Assembly (NCBI GenBank): GCA_008932965.1
Contig: WBXG01000021.1
Location: forward strand, 1-26,460
DNA length: 26,460 bases
DNA from: Verrucomicrobiota bacterium
Lineage (GTDB): Bacteria > Verrucomicrobiota > Verrucomicrobiia > Chthoniobacterales > UBA6821
Direction of reading: 5' to 3'
The notes below the pieces were generated by a model. It made no database searches, was not told the DNA's origin, and saw only the letters and a list, made by a program, of their open reading frames with translations. The translations under genes were made by a program, and so were the position numbers. The number at the start of each line of letters is the position of its first letter. Position 1 is the stretch's first letter. This document shows positions 27 through 24,017 of this stretch, piece after piece.

Positions 27-141
27 TAAACAAAATATTTCCTACCCATCGTGATGAGGAGGCCGCGAAGGCTCATGGGGCAAGGTGCGTGAGTACTTTG
101 ACGCTGGGCTGCATCAGATTCTCTACTCTCCAACTCAAAAG
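27..141 (+). repeat. Copy B of the palindromic MITE-like repeat family. It is a truncated long form: degenerate terminal repeat, left arm and central hairpin. The right arm is absent and the copy abuts the 3' end of tRNA-Thr.
   Basis: GTGATGAGGAGGCCGCGAAGGCTCATGGGGCAAGG starting at nt 51 aligns with GTGACGAGGAGGCCGCGAAGGCTGATGGGGTAAGG at 2217 in the glnD copy (about 28/30 over the first 30 nt, about 70% after that). Similarity to the central region of the long form (CTCAAATCAAAATGTGAG versus CCAACTCAAAAGTGGAG) continues to within a few nt of the tRNA end. The terminal repeat is degenerate (TAAACAAAATATTTCCTACCCATCG). Confidence 0.6.
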
Positions 142-217
142 TGGAGCCGGCAGTCGGACTCGAACCGACGACCGGCTGATTACAAATCAGCTGCTCTACC
201 AACTGAGCTATGCCGGC
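142..217 (-). tRNA. tRNA-Thr (anticodon UGU), 76 nt with encoded CCA
   Basis: The minus strand reads GCCGGCA-TA-GCTC-AGTTGGTA-GAGC-A-GCTGA-TTTGTAA-TCAGC-CGGTC-GTCGG-TTCGAGT-CCGAC-TGCCGGC-T-CCA. It has a 7-bp acceptor stem, 4-bp D stem, 5-bp anticodon stem with a 7-nt loop (anticodon TGT) and a T arm containing GGTTCGAGTCC. Confidence 0.92.
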
Positions 218-297: not shown

Positions 298-3234
298 TTA
301 TCTATTCCTTTTGACTCCATCTTTCTTTATTTCCTGAGGAATGGAATATTCCTTTAAAATTGCTCTTAACAATCGCTGATGAAGCACGGCAAGCGTCTCT
401 TTATCAGTCACTTTTTTTTCATGAGATCCTAGAATATAAAATGTATCAAATGCTGCCCTCATTTCTGTAGCAATTCGGGCACAGTTAATAGAAATGTCGT
501 GATAATGGAGTGCTCCTACTAAATCATAAAAGAGGCCCTCTCGATCTGCTGTCTCTACTTCAACGAGGGTATGACTCGGATGTGATTGATTATCGATGAA
601 TAAATACGAAGGGCCCATCGTATCGTTCTGATTTAGGGATTCGATATTATCCAAAGGAGAGAAGTTCTTATCAAAACGATCTTGAAGCTTATGACTCTGA
701 AGTTTTAAAAGTTCTTGCAGCTTTTTCTCCATTATTTTTTTTTCTTTCTCAGTTAACATGGGGTCAGCACGAACACTAGTAACCCGAAAAATATCCAGGG
801 TAAGCTGATCCTGACGTGTAAAAATATCAGCACTGAGAATATTAATTCCTGCTGCAAGAAATGCTGCAGCATAACGTTCTAGTAATTGCTCTCGATCCCA
901 TCCACATATAGAAACTTCGGTATAACCAGATTCCCTGTTCTCTTTCCACTCAATTTCTGCAGCAAGGGAGTGCCACTGTGGAGCGTTGGTGTGCATTCGC
1001 TGTTCAAAAAATGAGCGAAATAACTGCAGGTGATCCTTGATGCGTGAAGGTTCTATCGTCTTGAAATAGCGTTCTGGCATCTGTTTGAAATGAACCTCAA
1101 TTTCTTGCCCGAAATCCTCTGGTACCATTTGTTGAACTATTCTTTTTATAGCATCACGATCGTGGTGGTTTTTCTCAAAAAATGTTTTTCCTAATTCTAT
1201 ATATCTCTTTGTTTGATCATAGAGACTCCACACAAGTTGCTCTTTCCAGTCACTCCAGTGAGCATCACTTGCCCCCATTCCATCGGCTAATGTTAGAATG
1301 ATCAGTGAGTCAAGTAGGGATACTGTTTTGATCTTCTTAGCAAAATTGATGATTGTTGCAGTATCGTCCAAATCACGTGACCGAGCAACCGTTGCTAATT
1401 CGGCGTGAAATTTGACCAAGGTAATTAATAAATTTGAGCGCTCCTCAGAAAGTTCTAATCGTAATGCAACTTTTTTTGCTAGCTCTACACTGGCAAGAGC
1501 ATGATGTGAGACATTAGCTCCCTTCCCTGTGTCATGAAGTAACATTGCAAGATACAGCATGGAAGGATCATCAAGGTTTTTAAATAACTTGCTATAACGA
1601 ACTAATTTTTTGTTTGTTGTAAAAAGAAGCGAATCAATTTTTTCAAGACAGACCAGTGTATGTTCATCAGCTGTGTAGAGATGATAAAATTCATGTTGAA
1701 CTAAGCAGGTCAACGTACCAAATTCAGGAATATATTTTCCTAAAAATCCCAGATCATGCATCCTACGAAGAATAGGCCCTACATCCCCTTTTCTCGATAG
1801 AATGGTTAAAAAGATAGTGCTTATCTCCTTTGATTTTTGAAATCGTGGACTGATTTTTGAAAGGTTCCTCTTTATAAGATCGTTTAATTCAGAGGAAAAT
1901 TGAAGAGAGCCTACTTGTGCAATCTGAAAAGATTTCATCATACGCTCCGGATCTGAAAAGATTCTGGGATTTTCTGGAAACAGGACTCCTTCCCTAATGA
2001 CAAACCCAGAGAGTTTTTCTTCTTTCTTTTTTTTCTTTGAATAGGAACCTAATTTTCCTGTTTCTTTTTCGTTAAGAGGAGGTTGCAGGCGAGCGAGCAC
2101 GGCAGATGTAATTAGATAAATTTCACGTGTAATTTCATAATAATTTTTCATGAAGGCTTCACTCCTTCGAATCATACTCTGCTGTGTGTAACCTAGCCCG
2201 GATGTTTCATACTGATCGTGACGAGGAGGCCGCGAAGGCTGATGGGGTAAGGCAGGCGAGCATTTTGATGCAGGGCTGTATGTGTACATACTGCTCAAAT
2301 CAAAATGTGAGTCTAACGCAGCATCCATCTGACTTCCCGGCTTCCGTAGTAGATCAGTATGAAACATCCGGGCTAGCTTGGTTGCAACTTTTCCCTGCAG
2401 GCGCAGTGTCAATTGATCCTGAACTCTTTTCTCCTGGTAGTGCATTTCATGACGTACTTTTAGAAGAAAATCGTAATTCTTCTCTAGTTTTTTTCTTTCT
2501 TTCTCTGTAAGAAACTTTCTTTTGGTTAAATATTTAAGTTGCGACTTTGAACCATGGAAAATAGAAATCCATAGAAGATTTTGATAGTCACGAAGTCCTC
2601 CGGTTCCTAATTTTATATGTGGTTCCTGCATAAATACACTTGTACCATAGCGTTCTCGGAGTTTTCTAATATTCTCAATCCTCCATTGGATATAATTTTT
2701 TTCTTGTCCAAGGATACAGATTTTCCGGAATTTTTTTTTAAATATGTTAAATATCTTTTTTTCTCCGGTAAGAAAACGACATTCCAACACTGCTGTTTTG
2801 AAAAGCATCTCTTGATTCGCATAGGTAAATACTTCCTCTAACGAACGAGTTGAGTGTCCTACTCTAAAATCAAGATCCCATAAGGTCATTAAAATGGAGC
2901 TAATGAGCTGTTCACTTTCAGGAAGCAATTCTTTTTCCTCATATAAAAACATAATATCAATATCGCTATAGGGATTCATTTCACCTCGTCCATATCCTCC
3001 AATAGCGACAACCGACAGTCCTTGAGCAAATTTTTTTTTCTTCCCAATAAAAAAAATAAAAATACTTTTTAATAAAATATCAATGAGGTCTGAGCGTTTT
3101 TGCGCAACTTTTCTTCCACTTTCACCTTTACTATGGAGCTGATAGAGTTCCTTCTCTCGATAGTGATAAATTTTTTTTATCTGTTCTAGAGATAATTCTT
3201 CATGAAGATTTCTTTTTTTGAAAACTGATTTCAT
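298..3234 (-). CDS. glnD: Bifunctional [protein-PII] uridylyltransferase/uridylyl-removing enzyme GlnD, carrying a 60-aa in-frame insertion derived from a repeat element
   Basis: NTase motif VAIGGYGRGEMNPYSDIDIMFLY. GGLRDYQNLLWI motif. HD domain (FYHLYTADEHTL, LLHDTGKG). Two C-terminal ACT-like domains (TEVSICGWDREQLLERYAAAFLAAGINILSADIF and TLVEVETADREGLFYDLVGALHYHDISINCARI). The ORF-track start at 3276 is a TTG that overlaps the upstream gene. The first ATG (MKSVFKK) is at 3234, 13 nt after the upstream stop and directly preceded by GGAAGAGG. Confidence 0.88.
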   Translation of the reverse strand: MKSVFKKRNLHEELSLEQIKKIYHYREKELYQLHSKGESGRKVAQKRSDLIDILLKSIFIFFIGKKKKFAQGLSVVAIGGYGRGEMNPYSDIDIMFLYEEKELLPESEQLISSILMTLWDLDFRVGHSTRSLEEVFTYANQEMLFKTAVLECRFLTGEKKIFNIFKKKFRKICILGQEKNYIQWRIENIRKLRERYGTSVFMQEPHIKLGTGGLRDYQNLLWISIFHGSKSQLKYLTKRKFLTEKERKKLEKNYDFLLKVRHEMHYQEKRVQDQLTLRLQGKVATKLARMFHTDLLRKPGSQMDAALDSHFDLSSMYTYSPASKCSPALPHQPSRPPRHDQYETSGLGYTQQSMIRRSEAFMKNYYEITREIYLITSAVLARLQPPLNEKETGKLGSYSKKKKKEEKLSGFVIREGVLFPENPRIFSDPERMMKSFQIAQVGSLQFSSELNDLIKRNLSKISPRFQKSKEISTIFLTILSRKGDVGPILRRMHDLGFLGKYIPEFGTLTCLVQHEFYHLYTADEHTLVCLEKIDSLLFTTNKKLVRYSKLFKNLDDPSMLYLAMLLHDTGKGANVSHHALASVELAKKVALRLELSEERSNLLITLVKFHAELATVARSRDLDDTATIINFAKKIKTVSLLDSLIILTLADGMGASDAHWSDWKEQLVWSLYDQTKRYIELGKTFFEKNHHDRDAIKRIVQQMVPEDFGQEIEVHFKQMPERYFKTIEPSRIKDHLQLFRSFFEQRMHTNAPQWHSLAAEIEWKENRESGYTEVSICGWDREQLLERYAAAFLAAGINILSADIFTRQDQLTLDIFRVTSVRADPMLTEKEKKIMEKKLQELLKLQSHKLQDRFDKNFSPLDNIESLNQNDTMGPSYLFIDNQSHPSHTLVEVETADREGLFYDLVGALHYHDISINCARIATEMRAAFDTFYILGSHEKKVTDKETLAVLHQRLLRAILKEYSIPQEIKKDGVKRNR
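2194..2375 (+). mobile_element. Copy A, the full-length long form of the palindromic MITE-like element: 178 bp (2196-2373) flanked by TA on both sides, located inside the glnD coding sequence
   Basis: Perfect 23-bp terminal inverted repeats AGCCCGGATGTTTCATACTGATC (2195-2217) and GATCAGTATGAAACATCCGGGCT (2352-2374). TA at 2194-2195 and 2374-2375. Internal arms are partly complementary. The central hairpin is CATTTTGAT...ATCAAAATG around GTATGT-GT-ACATAC. Homologous copies occur at seven other places in the window. Confidence 0.85.
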
Positions 3235-3247
3235 CCTCTTCCGTATT

Positions 3248-4171
3248 TTAAGGATTTTTATTTTGATGAATGACAATTTCTACACGCCGATTGAGGCTCT
3301 GTTGTTCAATAGATCCAGTGCTCGGAACTAGGAAATGGGTCTTTCCTAGTCCATAAGCTTGGATTTGGTTGGGATTAATGAGCTCTTTTTTGATAAGCCA
3401 CTCTTTAATAGTATTAGCCCGGCGTGTGCTCAAATTCATATTAAACTCATCACTTCCAAAATTATCAGTAAATCCCTCTACGATAAACTGAGCTTTTGGA
3501 TTGCGCTGAATGAGAAGAGCTAGCTTTTTTAGACTGTTTTCAGCCTCTTTCTTTAATTGATCTGCGTTATATTCAAAAAGTAAATCGGTCGGGAGTAATA
3601 TCGGAGCTGTTTGCGAGGAAAGAACTGTTTTTTCCTCAATGAGTTGATCAAGCCTGCTATAGGTTGCTACACTCTTTTGTTTATCCAATCCTATATCTTC
3701 TAAGGTACTCTCCTTGGTGGTTGAATCAAAGGCGAGTAGGGGCTGATTATCCCTAGGTCTACCTTCTGGAAGAATTATATTTTCACTAAGTACCTCCGGT
3801 TTATCTTCTAAAAAATCATTGTTATCAATCAAACTAGGTTTAGGGTTATTATTTTGAAGAGGGCTCTCTAAAGAAAAACTCTCTGTTTTTTGTATTCCTA
3901 AATCGACTTCATGTTGAATAATATTCGTTTTTTTATCTTTAAACTCTTCTAAAATTACTGGATCTATTTTTACACTTTCCAAATGAAATCTTCTTGGGAC
4001 AATACTATCAAAAGTTGATGGGTTAAATGTCCCTATTTCTAGATTTTTTATCCTATCAAAAAGAAAAAGATGTATGGATATCGATGCGATAATAGATCCT
4101 ATAAACCAACCACAAAAATTAATATCCCTTGGATCAAACTTTCTTTGATAATCTCTCTTTCTTTTATTCAT
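3248..4171 (-). CDS. OmpA/MotB-domain protein with an N-terminal membrane anchor (peptidoglycan-associated)
   Basis: N-terminal hydrophobic helix FCGWFIGSIIASISIHLFLF. C-terminal OmpA-like domain (FEYNADQL...IVEGFTDNFGSDEFNMNLSTRRANTIKEWLI...GLGKTHFLVP...NRRVEIVI). ATG start at 4171. Confidence 0.8.
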   Translation of the reverse strand: MNKRKRDYQRKFDPRDINFCGWFIGSIIASISIHLFLFDRIKNLEIGTFNPSTFDSIVPRRFHLESVKIDPVILEEFKDKKTNIIQHEVDLGIQKTESFSLESPLQNNNPKPSLIDNNDFLEDKPEVLSENIILPEGRPRDNQPLLAFDSTTKESTLEDIGLDKQKSVATYSRLDQLIEEKTVLSSQTAPILLPTDLLFEYNADQLKKEAENSLKKLALLIQRNPKAQFIVEGFTDNFGSDEFNMNLSTRRANTIKEWLIKKELINPNQIQAYGLGKTHFLVPSTGSIEQQSLNRRVEIVIHQNKNP

Positions 4172-6325: not shown

Positions 6326-6393
6326 TAAGGGGTTAGTTATTTTCATCAAATTATCTGCGGAAGCTGGGAAACCAGTATGAAATATGCAGGTTA
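6326..6393 (-). repeat. Copy C1 of the repeat family, a mini form of about 68 bp
   Basis: The right terminal repeat ACCAGTATGAAATATGCAGGTTA is well conserved. The internal TCTGCGGAAGCTGGGAA matches the arm CTGCGGAAGTCGGGAAG of copy E. The left terminal repeat is degenerate (GGTTAGTTATTTTCATCAAATTA). Confidence 0.55.
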
Positions 6394-6447
6394 GACCCCT
6401 AGCTTTGAGGCCCCCCTCGCTACGATTAGTAGGAAACATCCGAGTTA
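6394..6447 (-). repeat. Copy C2 of the repeat family, a single-arm fragment adjacent to C1
   Basis: TTGAGGCCCCCCTCGCTACGATTAGTAGGAAACATCCGAGTTA aligns with the reverse complement of the left arm of copy A (CGCGGCCTCCTCGTCACGATCAGTATGAAACATCCGGGCTA). Confidence 0.55.
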
Positions 6448-7908: not shown

Positions 7909-7980
7909 GGACTGAAAATTTCTAACTTCTCGGTGCTATCATTCCTGCCTTACTAAAATGAGTATGAAATATTAGGGCTA
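7909..7980. repeat. Copy D of the repeat family, a degenerate mini form
   Basis: The right end TTCCTGCCTTACTAAAATGAGTATGAAATATTAGGGCTA parallels TTCCCGGCTTCCGTAGTAGATCAGTATGAAACATCCGGGCTA of copy A. The left end GACTGAAAATTTCTAACTTCTCGG matches the terminal repeat only weakly. Confidence 0.4.
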
Positions 7981-7999
7981 ATCCCAAAAGCATTCCTTC

Positions 8000-8766: not shown

Positions 8767-8871
8767 TAAACCCGGATATTTCATACCGATTCTGCTGCGG
8801 AAGTCGGGAAGTCAGATGGATACTGCGTTGATCTCGAAGTCTTCCTCGGGCAGTATGAAACCACCAGTGAT
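8767..8871 (-). mobile_element. Copy E of the repeat family, about 105 bp, inverted relative to copy A, with the central region deleted
   Basis: TAAACCCGGATATTTCATACCGATTCTGCTGCGGAAGTCGGGAAGTCAGATGGATACTGCGTT aligns nearly base for base with the reverse complement of the right arm of copy A (TAGCCCGGATGTTTCATACTGATCTACTACGGAAGCCGGGAAGTCAGATGGATGCTGCGTT). The far end, GGCAGTATGAAACCACCAGTG, is a degenerate terminal repeat. Confidence 0.75.
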
Positions 8872-9239: not shown

Positions 9240-11294
9240 ATGAAGTTAACCCTCTTCAGAAAATCTTGTAACACCATTGCTACACTCGCTATCGGTGCTG
9301 CTGTTTTATTACCAATAAAGGAGGCAAGTGGGCATCAGAATACATTATTAACGTTAGATTCAAAAAAAGAGATTGAGAAAATCATTCTATTTTTAACATC
9401 TGATATTGAAGCCTTATCGCAAGATACCCCTAATCCAGGGTTTACCTATGTAGGAACAGCTGGAGAGCTTCAGCGAAAAAAGCTTCCACTGAGCTTCTAC
9501 TGCACGAATCAATTTTGGGAGCAATATGTTCTTCAACTTCCTGGTGAAGATTCCAACTCCGCAGATCTTTATAATCCCAGTGAGAATACATTTACCCCCA
9601 TGCCTGGATCGCGTGGTCAACTCCAAGTGGAGCGCATTAATATTAAAAGCGGCTGTAATATTTATGATGCTGCTACGTGGCAAATTGCCCTTGCCTTAGC
9701 AGGAGACGATGGTGTGAAGGGAGATGGAGAAGAAAACATATTTTCATTAACTGATAATCAAAATGAATTGCTGAAGGAAGGTTATGATGGAAAAGATGCT
9801 GGTGATGTTAACCAAAATGGAGCACCACACAAAGATGCTAATAGAGGAGTAACGGTCATAGGGCCAGAGAACCAATACCAATTTCTTTATAATGGATGTG
9901 TGATTACTAACCCTAAAGAGGCATACTTTTACAGACAAGTTCCTAAAACTTTTAAGAATGAAGATCCGCTGGGTAAAACAGTTCAAATATTGGATACAAA
10001 TGGCAATCAAATGCCCGATGATAATGTAGACTATCCAAAAATCTCAATCTCATGGACAGATTGGAAACCTATTACTGGAGAAAATATTTGGGCTTTTCTC
10101 ATTGGCCCTTTGCATACAGCGCTCATTAAATACAAAAAATCTCCCTGTGTTCCTTTTGAATCGGTTGCTGTTCAAAACGCAATAGCTGTCCTTGGGACAT
10201 TTCAAAAAATGCAATCTGGGGTTGGAGGTATTTACTATGCACCATCAGGTTCTATGGCTAATATTGGCACTCAAGCAGTAAGCCGCTATGAAGTCTCCGT
10301 GGAAAATAACATCTCTGCTCTCGGTGGGCTTCTTGTCTTTCGGAGAGTTCTTCAAGAGGAACTCAGTTTTGCTCAGTTATCGACTAAAGAAAGATATGAC
10401 ATTCGCAAATCGCTTGGGATTATTCAGACCATGCTTTATGGAGGTACCTATCAGGTCAATTCTCAACTTGGTCAAAAAGAAGAGAGAAGAACTCATGGTC
10501 TTCTCTCCTTTCTAAAAAATGAAGCATGGGATGCTACGAGTGGAAGGTTTTATTCAGGCGGTGAGGCAAATAAAATGGATGAAAGCACTCATCAAGAAGT
10601 AGAGAAGTGGCTCCCGCATGCAACTCAAGCAGTTGATGTGAATACTTGGGGTTTAGCTGTATTAGGACAAAACTTCCTTGATAGTGCTTATGGCTTCGGT
10701 ACCGCATATCAACTTTGGGTGAATCTCAAAAGTTGGGGGGGATATTATGGTGCAGCGCAAAATGGAGTTGATCAAGAATTGTGGGGGGTTGGTTACTCTG
10801 ATCTTGATCATGAGGGTAACGGGAAAATAGATCCTAGCGACCATTCAGGAATTTTATCTGGAGAGTGGACAGCAGGTGCTATCACTGCACTGAGAGCGTT
10901 GATCACTCAATATGATCAGGTGATTGAGGCTGGAAAAGAGAGTCCAGAGAATATAGAAAAAGCTCAACATTATGTTGCTGACCTACGAAAAGATCATGAT
11001 GCCATGATCACTCATATCCAAAGCCTGAGAACAGATCGTTATGCTGATGAAAAAGCTTTTAACAGTGTTAGACCAACCAATTATTCATCATTGATAAATA
11101 TTCCAACTGATAAATTAGGTTATCTTTATGCTAGCAAGCGCTATTTAATTCCCTTTGGCTGGTATGCAAATCCGATTCCTAGCATGGCAAGTACAACCTG
11201 GGCTGTGATGCTACATTATAATTTCAATCCTTTCTCCGTGAAAGGCGATTACTCTGCTAATGATTTAAGTAATCCGGAAGAAGAGATAAATTAA
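9240..11294 (+). CDS. Secreted protein of unknown function (684 aa), possibly an all-helical toroid or glycosidase-like fold
   Basis: A long ORF with an N-terminal signal-like segment (MKLTLFRKSCNTIATLAIGAAVLLPIKEASG). It has repeated segments rich in aromatic and small residues (YDAATWQIALALAG, NIWAFLIGPLHTA, VNTWGLAVLG, EWTAGAITALRAL, STTWAVMLHY) that recall (alpha/alpha)6 barrels. I recognise no diagnostic catalytic motif. Confidence 0.7.
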   Translation: MKLTLFRKSCNTIATLAIGAAVLLPIKEASGHQNTLLTLDSKKEIEKIILFLTSDIEALSQDTPNPGFTYVGTAGELQRKKLPLSFYCTNQFWEQYVLQLPGEDSNSADLYNPSENTFTPMPGSRGQLQVERINIKSGCNIYDAATWQIALALAGDDGVKGDGEENIFSLTDNQNELLKEGYDGKDAGDVNQNGAPHKDANRGVTVIGPENQYQFLYNGCVITNPKEAYFYRQVPKTFKNEDPLGKTVQILDTNGNQMPDDNVDYPKISISWTDWKPITGENIWAFLIGPLHTALIKYKKSPCVPFESVAVQNAIAVLGTFQKMQSGVGGIYYAPSGSMANIGTQAVSRYEVSVENNISALGGLLVFRRVLQEELSFAQLSTKERYDIRKSLGIIQTMLYGGTYQVNSQLGQKEERRTHGLLSFLKNEAWDATSGRFYSGGEANKMDESTHQEVEKWLPHATQAVDVNTWGLAVLGQNFLDSAYGFGTAYQLWVNLKSWGGYYGAAQNGVDQELWGVGYSDLDHEGNGKIDPSDHSGILSGEWTAGAITALRALITQYDQVIEAGKESPENIEKAQHYVADLRKDHDAMITHIQSLRTDRYADEKAFNSVRPTNYSSLINIPTDKLGYLYASKRYLIPFGWYANPIPSMASTTWAVMLHYNFNPFSVKGDYSANDLSNPEEEIN

Positions 11295-13332: not shown

Positions 13333-13440
13333 TAACCCGCATATTTCATACTGGTTCGTCGCGAGGAGCCGCGAATCCTGACGCAGCATCCATCAGGTGT
13401 TCGCAAGCTGCAGCAGAATCGGCATGAAATATCCAGGTTA
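13333..13440 (+). mobile_element. Copy F of the repeat family, 108 bp including TA flanks, same orientation as copy A, with the central region deleted
   Basis: TAACCCGCATATTTCATACTGGTTCGTCGCGAGGAGCCGCGAATCCTG-ACGCAGCATCCATCAGGTGTTCGCAAGCTGCAGCAGAATCGGCATGAAATATCCAGGTTA. Both terminal repeats and both arms align with copy A. TA is present at both ends. Confidence 0.85.
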
Positions 13441-13460
13441 ATGCAGTCATAAAGCTACAG

Positions 13461-23940: not shown

Positions 23941-24017
23941 TAACCCGGATATTTCATACTGATCGTTACGAGGAGGCTTCCCGGCTTCTGTTGGTAATCA
24001 GCATGCGATATCCAAGT
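23941..24017 (+). mobile_element. Copy G of the repeat family, a 77-bp mini form in the divergent wzm/GT2 promoter region
   Basis: TAACCCGGATATTTCATACTGATCGTTACGAGGAGGC joined directly to TTCCCGGCTTCTGTTGGTAATCAGCATGCGATATCCAAGTT. The left terminal repeat matches the family consensus and the right one is diverged. Confidence 0.8.

Follow-up and report, generated by a model that had tools for sequence, protein, structure and literature searches.

Rickettsia palindromic elements (RPEs; RPE-1 and related families; Ogata et al. 2000, 2002), according to the summaries in PMC10969869 and PMC2229807, are short hairpin-forming repeats that lie in frame within conserved genes, and a Rickettsia Gmk protein that carries an RPE is both translated and active (PMC2229807). 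RPEs have been singled out for the frequency of their in-frame insertions, while for other prokaryotes a 2024 review offers speculation only (PMC10969869). Among other short repeats, the 107-bp form of Correia, the 127-bp form of ERIC, Coxiella QMITE2, and Anabaena MITEb and MITEe likewise have contiguous open reading frames (ORFs) and are occasionally positioned in frame; the resulting fusions, however, have been described as occasional and often involve gene ends or hypothetical genes. [quoted passage not shown] Here, we describe a 176-bp MITE that lies in frame within glnD, the gene for the PII uridylyltransferase/uridylyl-removing enzyme, in a low-GC (about 40% GC) stretch of 26,460 nt from a Verrucomicrobiota bacterium of the Chthoniobacterales (contig WBXG01000021.1; hereafter, the window), together with the repeat family to which this MITE belongs. 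In our assessment, the insertion is recent and the element is probably a passenger that GlnD tolerates; the MITE is compatible with coding and behaves like an RPE while lying outside the RPE families.

The host gene encodes a product of 978 aa, insert included, with matches to the Pfam domains NTP_transf_2, GlnD_UR_UTase (PF08335), HD, and ACT. Its homologs number 2904; the best is 99% identical outside the insert, and the closest ones carry the name Chthoniobacterales [protein-PII] uridylyltransferase. At the level of sequence, domain content (a nucleotidyltransferase domain, GlnD_UR_UTase, HD, and two ACT domains) and orthology thus mark the gene as glnD. The mechanical minus-strand ORF runs from 298 to 3276, with a TTG start at 3276 that overlaps the 3' end of an upstream OmpA-like gene (3248-4171); the ATG at 3234 is the likely start, being supported by orthologs as well as by gene callers. 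Gene calls on L095, an independent Joint Genome Institute (JGI) contig, include the identical 978-aa product.

Alignment with 25 orthologs (45-99% identity) showed a clean gap at K-L/G-Y, in every one of them, in place of the 60 residues that comprise aa 288-347 of the window protein (ARMFHTDLLRKPGSQMDAALDSHFDLSSMYTYSPASKCSPALPHQPSRPPRHDQYETSGL). The closest ortholog, P0001, is 99% identical and reads ...GKVATK-LGYTQQ... across the site, and excision of the 60 codons from the window gene yields ...VATKL/GYTQQS..., which is identical to P0001. An in-frame addition of 60 codons (180 nt), the exact peptide, and the sequence rejoined by excision had all been put forward in an earlier note made from the window alone, and each is borne out by the orthologs and by contigs with an empty site. 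The latter, L001-L003, come from three samples, encode P0001, and are syntenic with the window at 98.6-99.5% DNA identity; their alignment with the window is interrupted at the element alone, with a 5-base overlap. CTAG occurs once at this position in L001-L003 and twice in the window, such that the empty site reads AAC-CTAGC-TTGG and the filled site reads AAC[CTAGC]CCGG...CCGGG[CTAGC]TTGG, with a net gain of 180 nt. The filled allele recurs on L095, where the DNA is 100% identical to the window over 4684 nt. In these alignments, the glnD insertion is a presence/absence polymorphism among ~99%-identical strains. Lake metagenomes with the filled allele include JGI 3300027969, and those with the empty allele include JGI 3300045435, ERZ28593679, and ERZ21931129. 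One degenerate junction pattern, used to count filled and empty glnD alleles in metagenome_contigs, returned 0 matches even though the filled-allele contig L095 exists, and that collection is therefore incomplete for allele counting. A further contig of 2424 nt encodes the C-terminal 617 aa of the same GlnD at 100% identity (P0004) and begins 46 nt before its ORF, just past the element; assemblies break at the repeat.

The inverted repeat in glnD has arms of 28 nt (2190-2217 and 2352-2379) that are 96% complementary. The length of the perfect repeat within them depends on where the count starts: it is 21 nt in the element proper, 22 nt from 2196 onward, and 25 nt from 2193 onward, in place of the perfect 23 bp given earlier. 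In a search for 21-mers resembling this terminal inverted repeat (TIR), the window proved to contain 6 near-matches, where shuffled sequence predicts 0.00. Besides its TIRs, the core of which is conserved in >130 copies, the element has the other features of a MITE: it is small, it occurs in many copies, and it contains no transposase gene, its only ORFs being two read-through frames of 59-60 codons. An ORF on the opposite strand (2184-2510), correctly listed as open in the earlier note, exists because the other strand of the element also has one open frame. An Rfam scan of the window matched a tRNA only, and no RNA family matched the element.

To define the family, a TIR query was run against genomes (one per species) and against metagenomes. 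The genome scan gave at least 91 stretches, nearly all of which belong to four metagenome-assembled genomes (MAGs) of Chthoniobacterales, namely Kiruna_bin-02438, Tobar2m-G38, Deming_bin.170, and SMAG_U8253, and the metagenome scan gave at least 85 more; in viral_contigs, the same query gave 0 matches, with no sign of phage carriage. When the element was compared with the fetched loci by BLAST, 132 unique full-length copies emerged, 93 of them from the genome set and 39 from the metagenome set. The modal length is shared by 63 of the 93 genome-set copies, and pairwise identity across the family averages 73%, with a maximum of 98%. Other size classes also occur, one of about 96 bp and another of about 270 bp (TIR-to-TIR distances of about 90-100 and about 250-290 bp; loci L004-L179). 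All real family matches are from Chthoniobacterales or other Verrucomicrobiota entries. A match in Lysobacterales (L009) was rejected as a family member, as it is a chance 22-nt match in 63% GC DNA. The view that this is a mobile repeat and not native GlnD sequence is upheld by its multi-copy occurrence in a few Chthoniobacterales genomes, as well as by the empty sites described above.

Within the window, the other family copies are all intergenic and all truncated or internally deleted. The earlier statement that the same element recurs in non-coding DNA of the window therefore holds for relatives of the element, although none of them is full-length. The nearest full-length sibling is 93% identical, has CTAG on both sides, and is located just to the left of window position 1 (L001:13245-13422; also L095:4870-4994). 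This sibling, about 3 kb from the glnD copy, lies in frame in a called 228-aa ORF that has no Pfam match. Furthermore, a search with the peptide against a set of 5.8 billion proteins returned at least 137 "hypothetical proteins" (66-204 aa; from Chthoniobacterales and Verrucomicrobiae MAGs; P0121-P0240) and no long hosts; these "hypothetical proteins" are translated repeat copies, that is, annotation noise.

The family also reveals the target duplication. TA flanks 85-88 of the 93 genome-set copies, the bases before and after the TA co-vary, and the flanking 4-mers are TTAA, CTAG, or TTAG. Both flanking 4-mers are identical in 64 of the 93 copies, against 28 expected, and the non-palindromic TTAG is paired as TTAG/TTAG 8 times and as TTAG/CTAA never; the flanks are therefore direct duplications and not an extension of the TIRs. 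As judged from these flanks, the target duplication is a direct repeat of 4 bp with the consensus YTAR (CTAG in glnD), and the element proper is therefore 176 bp (2197-2372). The flanking TA of the earlier note is thus present, but it is the center of a 4-bp CTAG, and the length of 178 bp had to be revised. A 2-bp (TA) duplication, of the kind made by an IS630/Tc1-mariner-type MITE, was considered and rejected by the direct-repeat test of the flanking 4-mers.

A 4-bp target duplication of the form 5'-YTAR-3' is the signature of the insertion sequence (IS) IS5 (PMC5009759), and it is the one feature in which we compared the two. Because the family makes such duplications, an IS5-type DDE transposase, supplied in trans, is by analogy the probable engine of its transposition. 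In contrast to IS5, the 176-bp element codes for no enzyme, and neither a transposase gene nor an autonomous copy with matching ends was found in the fetched loci. The predicted autonomous partner would be an IS5-family DDE transposase whose ends read CCCGGAT(A/G)TTTCATAC.

For a copy to be scored next as in frame, the ORF around it had to continue for 40 or more open codons in each direction. By this measure, 44 of the 132 full-length copies are in frame (29 of 93 in the genome set, in hosts of up to 1194 aa, and 15 of 39 in the metagenome set). Hosts confirmed by Pfam include (i) the enzymes PheT, Dxr, PyrF, AroD, MalQ, and IspG/GcpE, together with ComEC; (ii) an FtsX permease, an OprB porin, a PMT glycosyltransferase, and a Liv-type permease; and (iii) a GT2/deacetylase fusion, an SBP_bac_5 protein, and HAD hydrolases. 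Two in-frame copies within one host ORF were seen at three loci: in a prephenate dehydratase, also confirmed by Pfam (L078:6638-7507 (+)), where they are tandem; in a PriA-like helicase, identified by eye (L053:83-2002 (+)), where the N-terminal insert is composite; and at L094:2859-5912 (-).

In-frame copies differ from the rest in what they have kept. The exact length is retained in 29/29 genome-set and 14/15 metagenome-set copies that lie in frame (43/44), versus 33/64 and 9/24 of the copies elsewhere (42/88); the genome-set figure for copies elsewhere becomes 33/63 once a split-gene candidate, the only one, is left out. Changes that create stops number 0 in the read frames; non-genic copies have 17 of them, and the unread frames have 11. 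This retention of length and frame bears signs of selection on the hosts, so far as the sequences indicate. Read copies, on the other hand, show no greater amino acid constraint than non-genic ones: the ratios of non-synonymous to synonymous changes relative to the consensus are 3.43 and 1.93 in read copies versus 3.10 and 1.65 in the same frames of non-genic copies (p = 0.68 and 0.42, respectively). It appears that read copies are visibly constrained only to contain no stop and to keep their length. The earlier note had asked whether GlnD tolerates or even uses the insert; the comparisons support tolerance across the family, but not a use for the peptide. NCBIfam holds TIGRFAM domain models for RPEs. 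When both insert peptides were searched against NCBIfam and Pfam at E values of up to 10, no RPE model and no meaningful or curated family was matched.

Other glnD genes have themselves been targets, since in five of them (P0006, P0007, P0008, P0009, and L016) old copies, one or two per gene, lie in frame at sites that differ from that of the window copy. In the P0008 protein, an in-frame remnant of about 17 aa (NLTRRFHGTHPLYEISGL) resembles two joined TIRs. Two glnD alleles, L016:3526-6606 (-) and L096:2001-5063 (+), match each other at 99.1-100% in their flanks and have in common an N-terminal copy that is in frame and identical in both. A single CTAG site in the ACT-ACT linker (element at about nt 2540-2740 of the coding sequence) is occupied in both as well, but by different family members in opposite orientation; these are 69% identical when compared directly and 81% identical when one is reverse-complemented. 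Inversion in situ was rejected for this site, given 81% identity between the reverse-complemented elements versus 99-100% between the flanks. The arrangement suggests either re-insertion at a hotspot or swapping of the core through the TIRs.

The structure of the element fits it to coding sequence. Exactly one frame per strand is free of stops, both in the glnD copy and in the family consensus, with several stops in each of the other four frames; 52% of the copies are open in one permissive frame and 61% in the other, whereas the other four are open in 1-8%. Both frames were open in only 2.6% of composition-matched shuffles of the core, which suggests, without proving it, that the element has been selected for this openness. 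As the ends of the element are inverted repeats, both orientations share their terminal motifs, reading L-[A/T]R[I/M]FHTD ... YE[I/T]SG-L, but have middles that are unrelated. In the permissive frame, the target's YTA is read as a leucine codon, and the host residue before the copy is Leu in all 24 of the in-frame genome-set copies displayed (out of 29). Among the genes of the window, 178 of 342 YTAR sites have their YTA as a codon. With 176 + 4 = 180 nt added per event and half of the YTAR sites in phase, about half of the genic insertions of an intact copy would therefore be frame-neutral, in either orientation.

Measured against RPEs, the family has in common with them that its members (i) are hairpin repeats of about 100-180 bp that carry ORFs, (ii) occupy intergenic DNA and, unusually often, in-frame positions in housekeeping genes, and (iii) appear to be tolerated where they insert. 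The in-frame frequency (44/132) is comparable to that of RPEs, so that the earlier suggestion of RPE-like behavior in an unrelated repeat family held up, and the scan of other coding sequences that it had proposed did reveal in-frame copies. The verrucomicrobial family has, however, no sequence or peptide similarity to RPEs, and its hosts are free-water, metagenome-derived Verrucomicrobiota (Chthoniobacterales), whereas those of RPEs are obligate intracellular Alphaproteobacteria. Its TIRs are 21-25 bp long versus about 12 bp in RPEs, and its target duplication is a clear 4-bp YTAR where that of RPEs is listed as unknown. Unlike RPEs, both of its orientations are translatable and equally used, and presence/absence polymorphism between near-identical strains shows that it is still active. 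With neither homology to RPEs nor any occurrence in Rickettsiales, the family is not, judging by its sequence, a member of the RPEs. It differs also from the Correia, ERIC, Coxiella, and Anabaena elements, in that its 44 in-frame copies among 132 are internal to long ORFs, including those of essential enzymes, with evident upkeep of length and frame.

To examine the likely effect on the protein, an AlphaFold2 model of the window GlnD, the sole host modeled, was built from 100 sequences (mean predicted local distance difference test score (pLDDT) 83.8; predicted template modeling score (pTM) 0.78); our search for a solved GlnD structure on which to map the site found none. The insert lies between helices 277-297 and 354-383, and its residues 301-346 have a pLDDT of <50 and no secondary structure, whereas the flanks score above 85-90. 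The 60 residues are thus predicted to form a disordered loop between two long helices, with the rest of GlnD confidently folded, an outcome that agrees with the earlier note's reading.

Several observations nonetheless weigh against a tolerated passenger, and most of these bear on its chief rival, namely that the insertion has inactivated or crippled GlnD, either as a young in-frame incipient pseudogene that has not yet acquired stops or as an allele kept where PII uridylylation is dispensable. We regard this alternative as unlikely. The insertion falls exactly where the PF08335 profile match breaks off (position 108 of 141), and by this match the site is inside the conserved catalytic-region domain GlnD_UR_UTase, not in a linker between the nucleotidyltransferase and HD domains, where the earlier note had placed it. 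The element in a transcript would form a very stable hairpin (-89 kcal/mol, z = -9), and in the mRNA such a predicted fold could hinder translation or draw in RNases. The filled allele is very young and polymorphic among ~99%-identical strains, with an empty site in three other samples, and so has been exposed to selection only briefly; an in-frame null allele of glnD would look the same. Moreover, filled and empty glnD differ by 8 non-synonymous and 7 synonymous codons, a higher proportion than the 15 and 42 of four neighboring genes. This dN/dS-type comparison (non-synonymous to synonymous) for relaxed selection rests on few changes, however; several of the amino acid differences appear to have arisen in the lineage of the empty allele, and the N-terminus, which is unconserved, holds five of them. 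Against inactivation, the window GlnD keeps every ortholog-invariant column in both a 26-sequence and a 100-sequence alignment, the insert is predicted to occupy an inter-helix loop with the remaining protein modeled confidently, and an independent assembly from another sample contains the filled allele. Likewise, in-frame copies persist in essential pheT, dxr, ispG, and pyrF, with frame and length kept despite 10-30% divergence, and related glnD genes have lived with old in-frame copies elsewhere in the gene. Two further points against the preferred reading concern the family rather than GlnD. Among the host ORFs scanned, 7 of 30 had no Pfam match, and some of these may not be real genes. A search for an autonomous partner, by way of TIR pairs 500-3500 bp apart and ORFs beside unpaired ends in about 1.4 Mb of fetched loci, found none; between separate MITE copies, there were ordinary genes only (for a hydrolase, an amidohydrolase, and a PriA-like helicase). 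IS copies are often lost from MAG assemblies.

Far less probable is a co-option of the inserted peptide, by which GlnD and the other hosts would have gained a new property, such as an interaction or a regulatory loop. The openness of both consensus strands, matched by 2.6% of shuffles, the conservation of the terminal motifs ARIFHTD and YEISGL, and the repeated presence of copies in related glnD genes might be taken in its favor; the motifs, however, are the TIRs, which are conserved as DNA for transposition, and amino acid changes in read copies are as unconstrained as those in non-genic copies. The two orientations, which encode unrelated peptides, are used equally in the genome set (14 and 15 in-frame copies), in hosts that are functionally unrelated. 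Furthermore, the insert is predicted to be disordered, its peptides match no curated protein family, and the glnD insertion is missing from ~99%-identical strains. We give the least credence of all to an assembly or binning artifact, in which a repeat was wrongly stitched into glnD. MITEs do break or confuse short-read assemblies, and the P0004 contig does start just past the element, but the identical filled allele on an independent JGI contig, with the exact 978-aa product and 4684 nt of 100% identical DNA, is therefore no such artifact; at its junctions, the 4-bp CTAG of the empty site is precisely duplicated, and dozens of other in-frame copies share the same anatomy.

As the filled and empty sites show, a non-autonomous MITE of 176 bp inserted very recently into the CTAG site of glnD, probably moved by an IS5-type DDE transposase acting in trans, and duplication of the CTAG brought the addition to 180 nt. 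Under the reading of a tolerated passenger, the most likely outcome, going by the model, would be a full-length, folded GlnD with a floppy surface loop. The 60-aa peptide would then be a tolerated passenger, neutral or slightly harmful, with no function of its own, and the filled GlnD allele may, by analogy, be expected to have retained its activity.

Table 1. Positions of glnD, of the inserted element and its parts, and of the other family copies in the window.
Feature	Position	Strand	Evidence or context
glnD, [protein-PII] uridylyltransferase/uridylyl-removing enzyme	298..3234	-	ORF, Pfam, 2904 homologs, independent JGI contig
60 extra codons, net 180 nt missing from the empty allele	2194..2373	-	ortholog alignment, empty-site contigs
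MITE proper, 176 bp, CCCGGATG...CATCCGGG	2197..2372		inverted-repeat search, filled/empty comparison, family flanks
Left 4-bp target-site duplication, CTAG	2193..2196		one CTAG in empty site AACCTAGCTTGG, two in filled
Right 4-bp target-site duplication, CTAG	2373..2376		filled/empty comparison, family flanks
Left TIR, CCCGGATGTTTCATACTGATC	2197..2217	+	inverted-repeat and 21-mer searches
Right TIR, perfect complement of left TIR	2352..2372	-	inverted-repeat and 21-mer searches
Spurious antisense ORF, 108 aa	2184..2510	+	ORF list; frame check
Truncated copy, 5' part only, about 80% identical; rest missing	28..115	+	near tRNA-Thr(TGT) 142-217 (-)
Internally deleted copy, about 79 bp	6369..6447		between mnmG and lpdA
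Solo TIR-like end	7956..7985		intergenic
Short copy	8768..8862		between convergent 3' ends of folB and ferredoxin gene
Internally deleted copy, about 111 bp, TTAA on both flanks	13333..13443		intergenic
Internally deleted copy, about 76 bp	23941..24016		intergenic

Elsewhere in the window, a 684-aa ORF at 9240-11294 (+) has no Pfam match, but it is conserved and syntenic in L001-L003, from which it differs by 25 synonymous and 7 non-synonymous codons; it is likely a real lineage-specific gene.

In practical terms, these repeats create spurious "hypothetical proteins," inflate the lengths of proteins in MAGs, and break assemblies. Among coding-compatible MITEs, the family stands out by its scale, together with clean natural pairs of filled and empty alleles; filled and empty GlnD, which differ by 60 residues and by 8 substitutions, are natural matched pairs that bear on how far an enzyme tolerates large disordered insertions. 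In-frame colonization of housekeeping genes, which has been regarded as a peculiarity of Rickettsia, is thus seen in an unrelated, uncultured freshwater lineage, and the family offers a concrete model for a selfish element shaped to be frame-neutral. More tentatively, and as a possibility that we hold to be open to about as much doubt as belief, with doubt slightly ahead, it may be a second case, independent of Rickettsia and similar in scale, of selfish DNA that is compatible with coding, in free-water Verrucomicrobiota and with its mechanism in view. The element would then have evolved a unit of 176 + 4 = 180 nt, with one stop-free frame per strand and the target YTA read as leucine, such that roughly half of its genic insertions would be frame-neutral and a compact genome could be colonized by way of its coding sequences, while turnover at fixed sites would give rise to strain-level polymorphism in the length and sequence of housekeeping enzymes.

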